A stretch of 36,197 nucleotides of DNA from an uncultured Candidatus Saccharibacteria bacterium (GTDB lineage Bacteria; Patescibacteriota; Minisyncoccia; Sungbacterales; SURF-37), in NCBI GenBank assembly GCA_964373495.1, contig CAYJUW010000001.1:1-36197 (forward strand), written 5' to 3'. The notes under the pieces are model-generated. The model did no database searches and was not told the DNA's origin. It saw only the letters and a program-made list of their open reading frames with translations. Below are positions 3,155-32,702 of the stretch, one piece after another; the first letter of the stretch is position 1; every line of letters starts with the position of its first letter. A program made the translations under genes and the position numbers.

Positions 3155-3722
3155 ACTTCATGATCGCATCACGCGTTGCCGGTAGTTCTCTTACGCCGTC
3201 GTCCTCGCTGAAGTGGCCTTTCCCCGGCTCGATTATAATTTCTGCGCCCACCCTGTTGCGGAATAGTTGGGCATTTTCGATTGGTACGTCGGGGTCATCA
3301 TCGGAGAACAGTGCGGTGAAATTATTCGTCGTTCGTCTCACCTTTGCAAAATCAATAGGCTGCTCAAGCCATTGCCGAGCAATCTCCCGTTCAGCGGCTG
3401 TTGGTGTTGCCTCGGGGGTTAGCGAGAACCAGCCGGCGACAAATACCGCGCCGCCGATGGCCGCGTTTATCGTTTCCAGGTAACGCAGGATGGTTAGACA
3501 GCCGATGCTATGACCGACAAAGTACGTATCCTTATTCGGCGCTTCGACCTGTCTGGCCAGATGCGGGACCCACGCCTCGACACGGGGCTCATTGCTATTC
3601 GGCATCGCAGGGATAAATACTGCAAATCCATTAGACTCGAGTTCCCCTTTCAGCCAAGGGAGCCAACCTTCATCAGGATGTCCGCCCCAGCCATGAATGA
3701 TGAATACGCGCTTGGATGCCAT
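3138..3722 (-). CDS. Alpha/beta serine hydrolase, YdeN/RBBP9-like family
   Basis: VFIIHGWGGHPDEGWLPWL plus the nucleophile elbow VGHSIGC, about 190 aa. The 3' end overlaps the murD start by 17 nt. Confidence 0.75.
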   Translation of the reverse strand: MASKRVFIIHGWGGHPDEGWLPWLKGELESNGFAVFIPAMPNSNEPRVEAWVPHLARQVEAPNKDTYFVGHSIGCLTILRYLETINAAIGGAVFVAGWFSLTPEATPTAAEREIARQWLEQPIDFAKVRRTTNNFTALFSDDDPDVPIENAQLFRNRVGAEIIIEPGKGHFSEDDGVRELPATRDAIMKYAEAR

Positions 3723-3751
3723 AATGATGTTATCTCAACAGCCAAACTGTT

Positions 3752-3793
3752 ATCTTAACAATTAAACGACGATCGTTTGAAAATTGTTAAGAT
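3752..3793. repeat. 42-bp imperfect nested palindrome in the AT-rich region upstream of the hydrolase-murD genes
   Basis: ATCTTAACAATT (3752-3763) pairs with AATTGTTAAGAT (3782-3793) and encloses AAACGA/TCGTTT. GTTATCT(C/T)AACA is also directly repeated at 3729 and 3749. Possible operator or promoter region. Confidence 0.5.
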
Positions 3794-3822
3794 TGAATTT
3801 CCAATATCCTAAACCGATTTTA

Positions 3823-3903
3823 CCCCGTTAGATCCCGAACGCTCCGGCTTGCCCCGTTAGAAACGATGTTTCTAACGGGGTGAAGGGTGGGGATCTAACG
3901 GGG
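3823..3903. repeat. Nested CCCCGTTAGA hairpin element
   Basis: Outer arms are CCCCGTTAGATCCC (3823-3836) and GGGATCTAACGGGG (3890-3903). The inner hairpin is CCCCGTTAGAAAC-GAT-GTTTCTAACGGGG (3852-3880). It begins 1 nt from the stop codon of the 3905-5482 gene. Confidence 0.9.
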
Positions 3904-3904
3904 T

Positions 3905-5482
3905 TTACGGTTTCCGCAACACTTGGCCGGCGGCCGCGCCGGTGAGCTGGCCCTGTTCCATGGCGAGTGTGCCGTTGACGACCACGGCTTCGATGCCGGT
4001 GGAATGGACGTAGGGGTTGAGGTAGGTGGAGTTGTCGCGGATTTTCTCCGGATCGAAGATGACCAGGTCGGCCCAGTGGCCCTTGGCAATGCGGCCGCGC
4101 TCGGCAAACCCCACGGCATCGGCCGGCAGGGAGGTGATTTTGCGCATACCTTCCTCCCAAGATATGAGCCCGGCCTCGCGGACGAAGCGGTGGAGGAAGT
4201 GCGGAAACGCTCCGGTGGAGCGCGGGTGGACGAGCTTGCCGGTTTGGCCAAGCTCGGCCGATACCCCGCTAGCGTCCGAGGCCATGATGCCCAAGGGGTG
4301 GGTCAGGCCGGCTACGACATTCTTGAAGGCGAGCGTTTTGCCGAAGATCGTCACCCGGCCGCCGTTGGCCGCGAGGAGCTCCAAGATGGCCTGCTCCGGG
4401 GACGAGCCGGCCCGCTCGGCGACCTCGGCGATGGTCAGGCCGTTGGTGTCGGTCACGACTGAGCTGGCAACGATGTAGCGATCGTAGTGGAGCGTTAAGC
4501 GCTGTAGCTCTTCGATGATGGTCGCGCGGTTGGCCGGATGGGCGATGCGCTTGAGCATGGCCGGGAATCCGCCTTCGCGGGCCCAGGGCGGCAGGAGGAG
4601 GTAGAGGAAGGAGCCGGTGCGCTGGTAGGGGGACACATCGAAGTGGAAGGGCTGGCCGTGGGCATGGGCCCGCTCGATCATGGCCAGGGCCTTAGGGAAG
4701 AACGGCCAGCTCTTGCGGCCGATGGCTTTGAAGTGCGAGACGATGACCTTGGCTTTGGACTCGCGGGCGATCTGGACGGCTTCGTTCATGGCCGGGATGA
4801 GGTCAGCCCCTTCGTGGCGGAGATGGGTTTTGTACACGGCGCCGTGGCGGGCGAGGACTTTGGCCAGCGCAGTGAGTTCTTCTGCGGTGGCCGGCTGTTC
4901 GTGGCTGTAGACCAGGCCGGTGGACAGGCCGAAGGCGCCCTCGCTAATCCCCCGCTCGAGGTGCTCGACCGCCTGGGCGAGCTCCTCGGCGTTCATGGGC
5001 CGGGATTCGCCGGCCAGGATCCCGCGGCGCAGCGTGCCGTGGCCGACGAGCGTGGCCACGTTTAGGCCGAGCGGATGGCGGGCCAGTTCCTCAAGGAGTT
5101 CTTTCACCGTGGCCCAGTTGATGTTGCGGCTGGTGGCCTCCCATTTGCGGAGCGAGGCCGCGGCTTCCGGGGATACAAGCGGGGCCAGCGAGGAGCCGCA
5201 GTTGCCGACGAGGATGGTGGTCACCCCCTGGGTCAGGAGGTAGTCCTGGAGGGGATTCTGGAAGATGGCCCAGTTTTTGTCGGCGTGGCTGGTGAGGTCA
5301 ATGAAGCCCGGGGTCACGAACTTGCCGAAGGCCGGGACGGTCTTCGCACTTCCGGCGCCGGGGAGGGTGGGGGCGCCGATGTCCTGGATGCGGCCGCCTT
5401 TCAGGCCGATGTCGGCTAAAAAACGCGGCTTTCCGGTGCCGTCAATGACCATGCCGTCTTTGATCAGGAGGTCGTAGGTCAT
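3905..5482 (-). CDS. N-acyl-D-amino-acid deacylase (D-aminoacylase) family amidohydrolase
   Basis: N-terminus YDLLIKDGMVIDGTGKPRFLADIGLKGGRIQDIG, then GFID..., VGNCG, and 525 aa in total, all typical of the family. Confidence 0.8.
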   Translation of the reverse strand: MTYDLLIKDGMVIDGTGKPRFLADIGLKGGRIQDIGAPTLPGAGSAKTVPAFGKFVTPGFIDLTSHADKNWAIFQNPLQDYLLTQGVTTILVGNCGSSLAPLVSPEAAASLRKWEATSRNINWATVKELLEELARHPLGLNVATLVGHGTLRRGILAGESRPMNAEELAQAVEHLERGISEGAFGLSTGLVYSHEQPATAEELTALAKVLARHGAVYKTHLRHEGADLIPAMNEAVQIARESKAKVIVSHFKAIGRKSWPFFPKALAMIERAHAHGQPFHFDVSPYQRTGSFLYLLLPPWAREGGFPAMLKRIAHPANRATIIEELQRLTLHYDRYIVASSVVTDTNGLTIAEVAERAGSSPEQAILELLAANGGRVTIFGKTLAFKNVVAGLTHPLGIMASDASGVSAELGQTGKLVHPRSTGAFPHFLHRFVREAGLISWEEGMRKITSLPADAVGFAERGRIAKGHWADLVIFDPEKIRDNSTYLNPYVHSTGIEAVVVNGTLAMEQGQLTGAAAGQVLRKP

Positions 5483-22252: not shown

Positions 22253-23524
22253 ATGTGGCTCGCAGTAGAAAAATTCCTTATCGCGTTCTTCCTGCCAATC
22301 CTCGGGTTTTTCTCGTTTCCGAACCGCGAGGCCGTACCGCCGCCCGCTGGGCTGGCAGCGGCGGTTGAGCAAACCGTTCCGCAGCCGACGATGCGGGGCG
22401 CTGCCACAAATGATGCAAAGGCCGCTCCTTCAGCAAGCTCAGGGCAGGTATATGCCGCAAAGGACTTATCGCTCGCGGCCCTGAAGGATTGCCTGAACCG
22501 CGCCGGTGAGAGCGGAAGCTGCCTCGATGCCATATTCCAAGATTTTTTTAAAATTCACACCACGGCAGACGCGCTCATCGCCCTCGGGCGCTACCAGGAA
22601 GCCGATACCGCTCTAAAACTCTCCTGCCACCCGGTCGTTCATGCCATCGGCCGCGAGACCTTCCGCCTCAAGGGCACGGTGCAGGATTCCTTTGCCGAGT
22701 GCGATCAGACCTGCCATTCCGGCTGCTACCACGGGGCCATGGAGCGGTTCCTGCGGGGCAATGCGGCGAGCGACGATGAAGCCGGGCACATCAGCGTGGA
22801 GGAGCTCCGACAAAAAGCGGCCCAGGCCTGCGATCCCAACCAGCCCACGCGCTTCCGCTTCCAATGCCTGCACGGCCTCGGCCATGCGCTGATGTTTTTC
22901 TCCGACTACCGGCTCGGCGAAGCGTTGGCTTCCTGTGACGTGCTGTCGGATGGTTGGAGCCGGAGTTCATGCTACGGCGGGCTCTTCATGGAAAACGTGT
23001 TTTCCGCCACGCCCGAAAAGCGCGATCTATCCCCTCATGACTACCACTACCCGTGCAACGTGCTCGATGAGAAATACCGGAGCGACTGCTACATGATGCA
23101 GACCACGCGTATGACCGAGATGGGCTTGGGGACGGAGCGTCTGTTTGAGGAGTGCCGTAAGGCCCGCCTGCCGGACGGGCAGGCCGGCGGGTACCAATTC
23201 ATCTGCATGCAGTCCATCGGCCGCGATCTTTCGAATGACGCCCGCATCGGCGATCCCCGGCTCGTGGCCCAAAAGTGCGAACTCGGGAGCGGCGAGGAAC
23301 GGCGGGCCTGCACCCGCGGCGTGGTCTACGCCCTGATTGACAACACCTGGGACGGCCGCTACGCCATGCCTTTTTGCAACACTTTTGGCGCCGCGGAGGA
23401 CGTTTCCTACTGCTACACGGCAAGTGCGGCCTACCTCCGAGCGACGTTTGAGAAGAGCGGGGCCGACATTGCGGCCGACTGCCATGCCTACGCGGCCGGG
23501 GTGTCGGCGTGCCTGCCCCGTTAG
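22253..23524 (+). CDS. Membrane-anchored Cys-rich repeat protein, function unknown
   Basis: N-terminal TM segment (FLIAFFLPILGFFSF). Repeated C-x(2-4)-G/H-containing units (CHSGCYHGAMERF, CLHGLGHALMF, CYGGLFMENVF, CMQSIGRDL, CTRGVVYAL). A GAGGTG SD lies 6 nt upstream. Confidence 0.7.
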   Translation: MWLAVEKFLIAFFLPILGFFSFPNREAVPPPAGLAAAVEQTVPQPTMRGAATNDAKAAPSASSGQVYAAKDLSLAALKDCLNRAGESGSCLDAIFQDFFKIHTTADALIALGRYQEADTALKLSCHPVVHAIGRETFRLKGTVQDSFAECDQTCHSGCYHGAMERFLRGNAASDDEAGHISVEELRQKAAQACDPNQPTRFRFQCLHGLGHALMFFSDYRLGEALASCDVLSDGWSRSSCYGGLFMENVFSATPEKRDLSPHDYHYPCNVLDEKYRSDCYMMQTTRMTEMGLGTERLFEECRKARLPDGQAGGYQFICMQSIGRDLSNDARIGDPRLVAQKCELGSGEERRACTRGVVYALIDNTWDGRYAMPFCNTFGAAEDVSYCYTASAAYLRATFEKSGADIAADCHAYAAGVSACLPR

Positions 23525-23578
23525 AGGCCCGCGCCTTGGGCGCGGCAGTCGCCTCTGGCGACTTGCCTCTAACGGGGC
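23515..23578. repeat. CCCCGTTAGAGGC three-way hairpin element; probable bidirectional terminator
   Basis: Outer stem GCCCCGTTAGAGGC (23515-23528) pairs with GCCTCTAACGGGGC (23565-23578) and encloses the hairpins CCGCGCC-TTG-GGCGCGG and AGTCGCC-TCT-GGCGACT. The TAG stop of the 22253-23524 gene lies inside the left arm. Confidence 0.85.
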
Positions 23579-27344: not shown

Positions 27345-28304
27345 TCAGAGCATGATTCTTACGACCTCGATGGTTTCAACTTTCTCCGTGAGCAGTCCGG
27401 CCTTGAGCATTAATTTTACCATGGCAAAAAGCAGAATCAAGCTGATCCAGTACACCGGGAGGGTGAGCATTTTGATGGCGATAAAGAAGCCGGCTGCGGC
27501 CAGGAACGGGAGGTAGGCGCGGTACGGCCCGGCGAGCTTTTCGATTTGGGTATTGGCTACGCGGTAGATGAGGTCCCCGCCGCGCTCCTCACCGGTGAGC
27601 TCGACCCCGAGCTCCTGGGCCAGCGCCCCCCGGTTCTCGCGCAGGAACTGGGCGCGCTCGGCCGCGGAGAGCTTTCGGACATCAATGTCAGGGCCGCCCT
27701 GCCACGCGGCAAAGGCCAGGAGCAGTTCGTCCACGGTGGCATCGCGGCGGAAGCCGGGCAGGAAATTTTGCAGCGGCTGCTCAATCAGGGGTATGGCGGC
27801 ATCGAAAAGGGCTTTGGGTAGGATGCTCTGGGTGGCCGCGCCCGAGACCGCGGTGAAGTAGAAGACGGCCAGGGTCAGGGCCACGGCGGTGAAGAATACC
27901 GGCAGGCCGCCGCGGAAAATTTTCCGCACGGCAAAGGCGTTGGAAATTCGGTACTCGCCGGCAATGGCATCGCTGGCGTACCAGCCGGCCGCGGCGCTGG
28001 CCGCGGCCGCGGATGCGGCCAGCGTGGTTGCCGGAACCAGGAGATAGCCGCCGGCAAGGGCCATCATGGCCGAGACCGTGCGCAAGGCCGGTCGCGTGAT
28101 AAAGGCCGAGGAAAGCGCAAAGAGGATGGCAAACAAAAAGAGCGCGATGACCGGCAGGGAGTAGAAGGTGAGACCGGCAAACCCCGTTAGATGCTCCGCG
28201 TCTAACGGGGCAAGCAGCACGCCTTTCCAGAGGTAGGCGTTGGCAAGGCCGGCCGCGACGGTGAGAACTCCAAGCGTGTATTCTTTCCAGTCTGGCTGTT
28301 GCAC
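27345..28304 (-). CDS. Hypothetical multi-TM membrane protein
   Basis: ORF with a GTG start. Its stop is 2 nt from the dnaJ ATG, which suggests coupling. No family recognised. Confidence 0.6.
28182..28210. repeat. CCCCGTTAGA-N9-TCTAACGGGG hairpin inside the 27345-28304 CDS
   Basis: Arms at 28182-28191 and 28201-28210. Encodes [10 protein letters not shown] in frame. Confidence 0.9.
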
Positions 28305-28852: not shown

Positions 28853-28941
28853 TAGTCCCTGAGCTTAGTTTACCCTGAGCCCGTCGAAGGGAAGGGCTAC
28901 CATAATAAATTTGGTATGCCTTCGACGAGTTCAGACAATAC
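28853..28941. repeat. Left flank of the GIY-YIG gene: one inverted and one direct hairpin unit
   Basis: TAGTCCCTGAGC...GTCGAAGGGAAGGGCTACCAT (28853-28903) faces GGTATGCCTTCGACGAGTTCAGACAATAC (28913-28941). Confidence 0.8.
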
Positions 28942-28944
28942 GGG

Positions 28945-29238
28945 TCACCATTTCCCCCACTCGCCGCGAATCAGCTTTTCTTTCTTGGCGCGCGTCCAGC
29001 CCTTGATTTGCTTCTCCCGCCGGCGAGCGGTATCGAGATCTTCGTACGCCTCGGAGTACGCTACCTTCTCCGGTTTATGCTTCGCGGTGTATTTAGATCC
29101 TAGACCGGAAAGGTGTTGAGTCCAACGGGTGTCGGGTTGCCATGTGAGGCCTGTGTAATAAGAATCATCTCGGCATTTGAGGATGTAGACGTACCACTTC
29201 CAACCCCGCCTTTTGCATAAGGTATGCCTTCGATACAC
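28945..29238 (-). CDS. GIY-YIG nuclease-domain protein (YhbQ/UPF0213-like, 97 aa)
   Basis: WYVYILKCRDDSYYTGLT...RWTQH...YTAKHKPEKVAYSE...ARRREKQIKGWTRAKKEKLI. The only in-frame start is GTG 29238. Confidence 0.8.
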   Translation of the reverse strand: MYRRHTLCKRRGWKWYVYILKCRDDSYYTGLTWQPDTRWTQHLSGLGSKYTAKHKPEKVAYSEAYEDLDTARRREKQIKGWTRAKKEKLIRGEWGKW

Positions 29239-29361
29239 TCAGGCAGTACTTTTTTTATTGTCGTGTCCTTGCGGTATGCCTTCGACCTGTGGTGAGCCAG
29301 TCGAACCCACAAGCTCAGGCAATATCTTTTTAGTCCCTGAGCGAAGTCGAAGGGCTGCCAT
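29221..29361. repeat. Right flank of the GIY-YIG gene: two direct units and one inverted unit
   Basis: GGTATGCCTTCGATACACTCAGGCAGTAC (29221-29249), GGTATGCCTTCGAC..CTCAGGCAATATC (29273-29326), and TAGTCCCTGAGCGAAGTCGAAGGGCTGCCAT (29331-29361). The block ends 1 nt from the dnaK stop. Confidence 0.8.
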
Positions 29362-32638: not shown

Positions 32639-32702
32639 AGATAGTATCTGCTTGCCCCCCAAGGGCTGTAACGGGGTCAGCTCGGGGGGCATAATTTCAC
32701 TC

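Follow-up and report, generated by a model that had tools for sequence, protein, structure and literature searches.

The window, the whole 36,197-nt stretch of DNA analysed here, is contig 1 of a 784-kb assembly (G000; 68 contigs, GC 59%, rated 99.1% complete); judging by its DnaK relatives, the genome belongs to Patescibacteria/CPR. Within the window, an amidohydrolase-family ORF is read on the minus strand, and a nested hairpin lies one base off its stop codon. The features of this locus are the following:

3819-3822: left duplicate of the 4-mer TTTA, flanking the element
3823-3903: outer element, 81 bp, 'D' subfamily, with arms CCCCGTTAGATCCC (3823-3836) and GGGATCTAACGGGG (3890-3903)
3852-3880: inner hairpin, 29 bp, CCCCGTTAGAAAC-GAT-GTTTCTAACGGGG, with 13-bp arms and a 3-nt loop, flanked by CTTG and TGAA
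3904-3907: right duplicate of TTTA, of which 3905-3907 form the amidohydrolase TAA stop on the minus strand
3905-5482, minus strand: amidohydrolase-family ORF

The element reads CCCCGTTAGATCCCGAACGCTCCGGCTTG[CCCCGTTAGAAACGATGTTTCTAACGGGG]TGAAGGGTGGGGATCTAACGGGG, with the inner 29-bp hairpin placed off centre within a 14-bp outer stem whose ends are CCCCGTTAGA and TCTAACGGGG. The 29-bp hairpin is also the minimal form of the element family. Folded as single-stranded DNA, positions 3819-3907 reach -33.1 kcal/mol (z = -9.7 against 200 shuffles), and the nested double hairpin described in the first-pass annotation is borne out, both stems being built of the common 10-mer. Its further remarks, that the element abuts a TAA and lacks a clean T-run, also hold, since the scan of 3600-4100 revealed no T-run terminator. 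On the minus strand the duplicated 4-mer is TAAA, the type of reading that marks the gene-carrying strand in gene-bearing relatives. Relatives of the element lie at C12:17690 (84 bp), at C8:9425 and C14:16341 (104 bp, without the inner hairpin) and at C18:12472 (44 bp); the reverse complement of the inner hairpin is located inside C12:17690, with CAAG duplicated on both sides. An AT-rich palindrome at 3740-3800, TCTTAACAATT...AATTGTTAAGA around CGACGATCG, occupies the same spacer ~20 bp away and belongs to a different repeat family of the genome.

With at most one mismatch, the window contains 15 occurrences of the motif; 2.0 are expected, and the maximum in 100 shuffles is 5. The other elements of the window are:

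20536-20664: composite element, 129 bp, 'C' subfamily, with arms CCCCGTTACAACC and GGTTGTAACGGGG and an inner 27-bp hairpin at 20616-20642, intergenic
21935-22035: variant element, 101 bp, CCCCGTTTGA variant, with arms CCCCGTTTGAAAACTTACA (19 bp, perfect) and CGGG on each side
23516-23577: Y-shaped element, 62 bp, 'B' subfamily, an outer stem with two inner hairpins
28182-28210: in-frame hairpin, 29 bp, read as PLDAEHLTG in the 319-aa membrane-protein ORF 27345-28304 (minus strand)

All four recurrences had been noted from the letters, the Y-shaped one as 23515-23578 and that at 21935-22035 in variant form. The composite element is 94% identical to C15:9302-9444, and the variant element sits between tRNA-Ala and tRNA-Lys. 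The Y-shaped element supplies its own TAG (23522-23524) as the stop of ORF 22253-23524 and differs by compensatory changes from C11:18763 and C14:8926, two copies that match each other at 62/62 positions. The segment encoded by the 29-bp hairpin is missing from membrane-protein orthologues in 11 related genomes. A half-site at 32667-32676 (one mismatch) is within the chance expectation. The motif was also thought possible in the terminator at 21418-21435, directly past the stop of ORF 21447-21761; this was rejected, as the structure is an ordinary short GC hairpin with a minus-strand T-run that matches only 8 of the 10 motif positions. In the window, Rfam returned two tRNAs only and no match for the hairpin elements.

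Throughout the genome, the exact 10-mer CCCCGTTAGA is present 80 times in 784 kb against ~1.5 expected, an enrichment of ~50-fold that upholds the earlier proposal of a second dispersed repeat family. The copies are nearly always inverted pairs, 26-187 bp apart, and with one mismatch allowed they form 82 clusters and ~50 outermost elements genome-wide. The family comprises 26-29-bp hairpins, Y-shaped units of 62-68 bp (an outer stem and two inner hairpins, with compensatory changes among copies), units of ~100 bp and of 125-165 bp, and nested forms. Constancy of the arms is limited to the first 10 bp; the next 3-9 bp vary by subfamily and are complementary within each copy, and the sequence between the arms is free, ranging from 3 nt to ~150 nt. 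Other palindrome families of the genome display no 4-mer duplication, a weak comparison, since their boundaries are maximal stem extensions that are not comparable with motif-defined ones. A self-BLAST of the genome gave no repeats of IS length, only many 100-160-bp families. An integron attC reading was discarded because the GTTAGA / TCTAAC strand order is the reverse of R''/R', and a palindromic operator because the half-sites lie 3 to >150 bp apart. Literature searches on the motif sequence and on MITEs in CPR produced nothing relevant.

Several further arrangements were observed in the genome. The sole tRNA-Pro(UGG) gene (C6:12196-12304) and a tRNA-Val-like gene with tRNA 3' halves (C6:13751-13937) each lie between a CCCCGTTAGA arm and its partner, both with the flanks TTCA...CAAG, and a LAGLIDADG-like ORF is situated between the two. 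A ~55-60-bp repeat, TACCCGGTAGTGAAACTTCGAACGGGGCGGCCTATCC..., precedes several genes (C3:19135-19192, C5:1-58, C10:71-125) and contains the motif-like CCCCGTTCGA; part of its repetition stems from contig ends that overlap by 55 bp in the assembly.

Insertion of the elements duplicates 4 bp at a T/C-N-N-A/G site. Of 126 arms, 121 have a pyrimidine (Y) at flank position -4 and 123 a purine (R) at position -1. At offset 0, 26 of 63 units carry the same 4-mer on both flanks, whereas no unit does so at offsets 1-5. Oriented by their interior, 'C' copies carry TTCA (5/5) and 'D' copies TTTA or TTGA (4/4). About half of all units are without a duplication, which counts against the explanation preferred below; a recurrent non-duplicated pair, TTCA...CAAG, finds only a partial explanation in descent from one composite. 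Removal of C2:27134-27212 together with one TTCA restores an 88-codon ORF, whose RelE/ParE-like product of 88 aa aligns end to end, across the junction, with ParE/HigB toxin profiles at scores below their cut-offs.

Copies survive within genes only if the reading frame is kept. About a dozen lie in frame inside long ORFs, including pcrA/uvrD, gyrB, an FtsW/RodA-like ORF and the membrane protein of the window, and in 11 of the 12 ORF-internal copies the length plus 4 is a multiple of 3; the twelfth, of 100 bp on contig 15, has a 5-bp repeat, CGCGG, on its flanks. Of the two copies in pcrA/uvrD, the first falls in a region that has 33 residues here and only 4 in solved PcrA, while the alignment of the second is ambiguous. 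A 101-bp element is inserted in frame at the gyrB N-terminus; the gyrB ORF (C2:27364-31143, 1260 aa) also bears a large insert with intein-like features.

Insertion has often taken place at the stop or start codon of an adjacent gene. A check of positions relative to stop codons, as the first-pass annotation had advised, locates the stop codon of a long ORF within the flanking 4-mer in 8 of 50 elements, against 0.4-1% of comparable 4-mer sites outside coding bodies. Elements abut stop codons because duplication of a T-N-N-A target regenerates the stop, combined with selection in a compact genome. Some copies are nested inside others, and the nested 'double hairpin' form arises because copies can land in one another. 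Relative to neighbouring genes, 11 gene-less copies have the same orientation, 4 the opposite and 1 a mixed one, a bias that is only suggestive. At 3823-3903, the 4-bp duplication upon insertion would have regenerated the amidohydrolase stop codon, and the double hairpin would be the product of one copy landing in another; the most likely role of the element, in the spacer 3' of the amidohydrolase gene, is that of a neutral passenger.

The distribution of the family in Patescibacteria is patchy. Short hairpins with exact ends are found in 17 of 41 relatives, numbering 0, 0 and 1 in the three congeners G001-G003 and up to 8 elsewhere, and in 10 of 400 other sampled Patescibacteria, from unrelated families; the reversed control gave no match in this sample. 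In the distant genome G076 (GC 41%), the exact 10-mer is present 154 times and the reversed control 5 times, and among the 37 units in 400 kb of this genome, 16 are flanked by duplicated 4-mers. In several G076 composites, a hairpin has inserted at a TTAG within the arm of a second hairpin and duplicated this TTAG. One 90-bp element of G000 has ~35 bp at each end in common with an element from a genome of another family, and 17 stretches with a short hairpin were found in IMG/VR. Such a patchy spread fits horizontally spreading DNA rather than a conserved host signal. In G427, six 29-bp hairpins share identical 13-bp arms, CCCCGTTAGAAGC, and differ in their 3-nt loops (CGA, TCC, CTG, ATG, CGG, ...); the tip is either a mutation hot spot or remade at each move.

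The associated enzyme sought on the advice of the first-pass annotation exists, in relatives and metagenomes only, and is a small GIY-YIG nuclease, not the RAYT or Y1 transposase that had been suggested. Among the small GIY-YIG genes of five genomes, 1 of 26 is positioned between exact arms and 25 do not adjoin the motif; several of these others are enclosed by related or unrelated inverted repeats. At G427:C18:9108-9423 (316 bp), directly before gyrA, the GIY-YIG ORF is placed between exact arms together with an inner 29-bp hairpin. A metagenome search with this protein yielded 80 homologues of 56-80% identity. At all 80 loci an upstream CCCCGTTAGA-like arm lies 14-43 nt, mostly ~20 nt, before the ATG and a downstream partner arm is present, with inverted repeats of at least 12 nt in 78. 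Six seed peptides were used, one of them encoded by the motif itself; the upstream arm, which is outside the query, and the search of relatives argue against a bias from this peptide.

The full-length unit consists of a 13-20-bp left arm starting with CCCCGTTAGA, an ORF of 83-86 codons and a complementary right arm, and unit lengths, with boundaries set by the motif, peak at 280-281 bp. It is extremely compact: left arm and ATG overlap, and the ORF ends either with the TAA contained in TCTAACGGGG or with a TGA that the duplicated target supplies. Duplicated 4-mers flank 36 of 69 unique gene-bearing units (mean 7.3 and maximum 16 in 2000 shuffles), and their orientation relative to the gene is uniform (36:0; TGAA 14 against TTCA 0, TATG 8 against CATA 0). 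The single-domain nuclease of 83-86 aa matches Pfam GIY-YIG, is 43% identical to the SsnA-like C9 protein of G000 and has as its best solved relatives UPF0213 BH0048 and EF2693, followed by SLX1. Its gene is co-oriented with its neighbours in 83% of cases, which may reflect a replication-strand bias or a need for read-through transcription, the latter because the unit leaves no room for a promoter.

The enzyme and the arms co-vary, as the arms shift with the identity of the homologue. In the same order as G000, these arms frame the homologues of at least 58% identity in 8 of 9 genomes, in units of 276-289 bp; one homologue of 52% identity has CCCCGTGAGA arms, and G000 contains this arm variant in gene-less form; and homologues of at most 49% identity in this order have unrelated or no clear arms. 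The site upstream of gyrA, occupied in G427, is unoccupied in the congeneric G401, where the same two flanks lie 130 bp apart, and G401 has a 76%-identical copy on another contig with TATG on both sides. Two observations count against the explanation preferred below. The genome G008 has eight short hairpins, yet its closest nuclease homologue is 48% identical and lacks these arms. The assembly of G000, 99% complete, contains no close nuclease homologue (best 43% at C9 and 36% at window 29002-29196), yet it holds copies that are 62/62 identical.

As the 280-bp nuclease units have the same arms and no cognate gene is found in the G000 assembly, the ~50 elements of G000 are, judging from these sequences, probably gene-less, MITE-like derivatives of a tiny mobile element of Patescibacteria that would move by a single-strand-nuclease route. 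As in MITEs, terminal inverted repeats are held in common with a gene-bearing element, a target duplication is produced, and empty or restorable sites exist; a recognised transposase is missing from the partner, whose sole cargo is the GIY-YIG nuclease. The presence of the GIY-YIG gene between the same arms makes this enzyme, rather than a classical transposase, the likely mover, and since G000 is without it, its copies would be orphans that moved earlier or in trans. In the proposed mechanism, the arms would pair in single-stranded DNA whatever lies between them, be it 3 nt, 60-100 nt, a tRNA gene or the nuclease gene. It is in this form that the stem would be recognised by the nuclease, which would nick a single strand beside the neighbouring 4-mer; copying and ligation by the host's replication or repair functions would then complete the move. 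Possibly a break at a matching 4-mer is repaired with the donor copy as a template through its two flanking 4-mers, which would account for the subfamily-specific 4-mers ('C' TTCA, 'D' TTTA/TTGA). GIY-YIG enzymes hydrolyse DNA; we know of no strand joining by them, nor of an enzyme for the insertion step, and the nuclease gene could be a passenger and not the mover.

There is a substantial chance, somewhat below even, that the arm-GIY-YIG-arm unit is itself an autonomous transposable element of ~280 bp whose sole protein is a hydrolytic nuclease of 83-86 aa. Such a unit would move via single-stranded DNA and leave an oriented 4-bp duplication; to our knowledge, no insertion sequence is as small. 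If true, this would be a transposition route distinct from those of DDE, HUH, serine, tyrosine and DEDD enzymes, and the in-frame hairpin insertions in CPR genes would be its debris.

The elements might instead be ordinary MITEs moved by a classical transposase (DDE, HUH/Y1 of the IS200/IS605 type or RAYT) outside the assemblies, with the GIY-YIG gene as a selfish passenger. Several DDE families typically produce a 4-bp duplication, integrase-core (rve) genes are present in four of five copy-rich genomes, and IS copies are often lost from metagenome-assembled genomes. No transposase, however, was found between arm pairs 0.25-8 kb apart in G000 and in 400 kb of G076, two long candidates having been rejected because they enclose host genes or are two separate elements, and the rve gene examined as a mover has unrelated ends. 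G000 does encode two RAYT-like Y1 proteins of ~240 aa (C33:587-1309, C58:1067-1795), but their genes are flanked by other hairpins, AATCTATTGAAGTC... and GTAGGGTCAGACCCTAC, and the motif is in none of the Y1 loci. Membership in REP/RAYT systems was rejected for this reason, in agreement with the first-pass annotation, which had not found the element clearly REP-like. Searches of G000 for DDE_Tnp_1, IS1380-type and TnpB proteins gave no match and no gene linked to the arms; a piggyBac-type search found nothing in control genomes either and carries no weight as a negative. With all 80 GIY-YIG homologues lying between arms that overlap their start and stop codons, and with a 36:0 orientation of the 4-mer that is not expected from a symmetric staggered cut, we regard a classical transposase as unlikely. 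As side observations, the C58 gene (C58:1030-1830) with GTAGGGTCAGACCCTAC on both sides is a classic GTAG-type REP arrangement, and the C33 gene (C33:480-1310) follows CTATTGAAGTCGGACTTCAATAG, which belongs to a palindrome family of 7 copies.

Alternatively, the hairpins could serve the host, either as RNA hairpins that end or stabilise transcripts or as NTS/SsnA-like marks that restrict transforming DNA. A dependence on DNA uptake is presumed for CPR bacteria. The stems are very stable, the abutment on stop codons is far above chance, and Ssn/NTS modulates transformation in Neisseria (PMC11893778). On the other hand, copies lie in frame inside genes and one breaks a toxin gene, no T-run was found in the scan of 3600-4100, a cognate nuclease is lacking in G000, the spread is patchy even within the genus, and the stop-codon bias also follows from the T-N-N-A target and selection. 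A host signal is thus quite improbable as the origin of the family, although a host function added later could be compatible with mobility. That the 10-mer is a DNA uptake sequence in inverted pairs, as in Neisseria or Haemophilus, is highly improbable: lineages of Patescibacteria carry competence genes, and the over-represented 10-mer is conserved across lineages, but nearly all copies are exact inverted pairs with duplicated flanks, the density is only ~1 per 10 kb, most relatives lack it, and the motif frames a nuclease gene.

The preferred reading, that of gene-less derivatives moved by a single-strand nuclease, finds its closest counterpart in the Ssn system. Ssn proteins are single-domain GIY-YIG enzymes whose binding to a hairpin repeat (NTS/SRM) requires that the DNA be single-stranded (Chenal et al. 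2025, Nat Commun, PMC11893778). Their cut falls upstream of the hairpin and on a single strand, and the loop may be removed or extended; the repeat commonly lies on the flanks of their genes, an arrangement that, according to the authors, resembles an insertion sequence, although mobility is raised as a hypothesis only and many enzyme/repeat pairs are expected (PMC11893778). Three features of the present family would follow from this biochemistry: arms that stay constant around freely varying content, a 4-mer of fixed orientation, and a stem that functions with either 3 nt or a gene inside it. In both systems, a single-domain GIY-YIG enzyme of ~85-100 aa is encoded by a gene framed by a hairpin repeat that is also scattered through the genome, and enzyme clade and repeat sequence co-vary. 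Orientation-dependent action beside a hairpin of irrelevant loop content may likewise be shared, the 36:0 4-mer orientation being an indirect sign of site-specific cleavage of single-stranded DNA upstream of the hairpin. Unlike Ssn, the arms CCCCGTTAGA bear no resemblance to the SRM/NTS consensus CGTCATTCCCGCG..., and the gene lies within a single stem, whose arms form terminal inverted repeats overlapping its start and stop codons, instead of having a complete hairpin on each side. Insertion evidence is available here (the 4-bp duplication, the empty site, the broken gene, and in-frame and nested copies), and the host phylum, Patescibacteria, is not treated in the Ssn study (PMC11893778). The system is probably Ssn-like in its way of working, short of proven membership; the nuclease is at most a candidate for the cd10448 clade, and its best solved relatives are UPF0213 proteins.

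Resemblances to other small elements are also evident. REP/REPIN-RAYT and IS200/IS605 (PATE) elements likewise combine short single-stranded hairpins, a cognate gene with its own hairpins and an excess of gene-less copies, and act strand-specifically beside a tetranucleotide; they use an HUH tyrosine transposase rather than a GIY-YIG hydrolase, and REP and IS200/IS605 leave no target duplication. Rickettsia palindromic elements and Correia/NEMIS MITEs are small palindromic non-coding sequences dispersed in compact genomes, with terminal inverted repeats and target duplications, and some are tolerated in frame inside essential genes, as here. The present family differs from them in its units of 26-29 bp at minimum, its 10-bp ends conserved across a phylum and its oriented 4-mer, and its autonomous partner would be a 280-bp nuclease-gene unit, not a transposase-bearing IS. 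New here are the cognate gene, the full-length form of 280 bp, the rule of orientation, the empty site and the link to Ssn.

A concrete and testable candidate enzyme is thereby provided for a class of tiny palindromic insertions in essential genes of CPR bacteria, and odd extra loops, shifted stop codons and broken genes in the annotation of such genomes are explained. The insertion footprints and the empty site support the idea of IS-like GIY-YIG/hairpin units put forward in the Ssn study (PMC11893778). If the nuclease drives movement, this would be a new and extremely compact form of DNA transposition, and further sequence-specific single-strand nucleases with known target stems would become available.

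Two other small GIY-YIG genes of G000 are associated with repeats. At C9:8681-8899, a second such gene (101 aa, YVYIMTN... type) lies inside 15-bp inverted repeats, ACCGTCATTGCGAGC, which resemble the published Neisseria NTS core (CGTCATT...); in sequence, this arrangement looks like a canonical Ssn/SRM pair in a CPR genome. In the window, a gene for a 97-aa GIY-YIG protein (28945-29238, minus strand), 36% identical to the CCCCGTTAGA-linked nuclease, is located just 3' of dnaK, and its flanks (28853-29361) carry the hairpin repeat GGTATGCCTTCGAC... / GTCGAAGGG..., with which it probably forms a third enzyme/hairpin pair of like kind.
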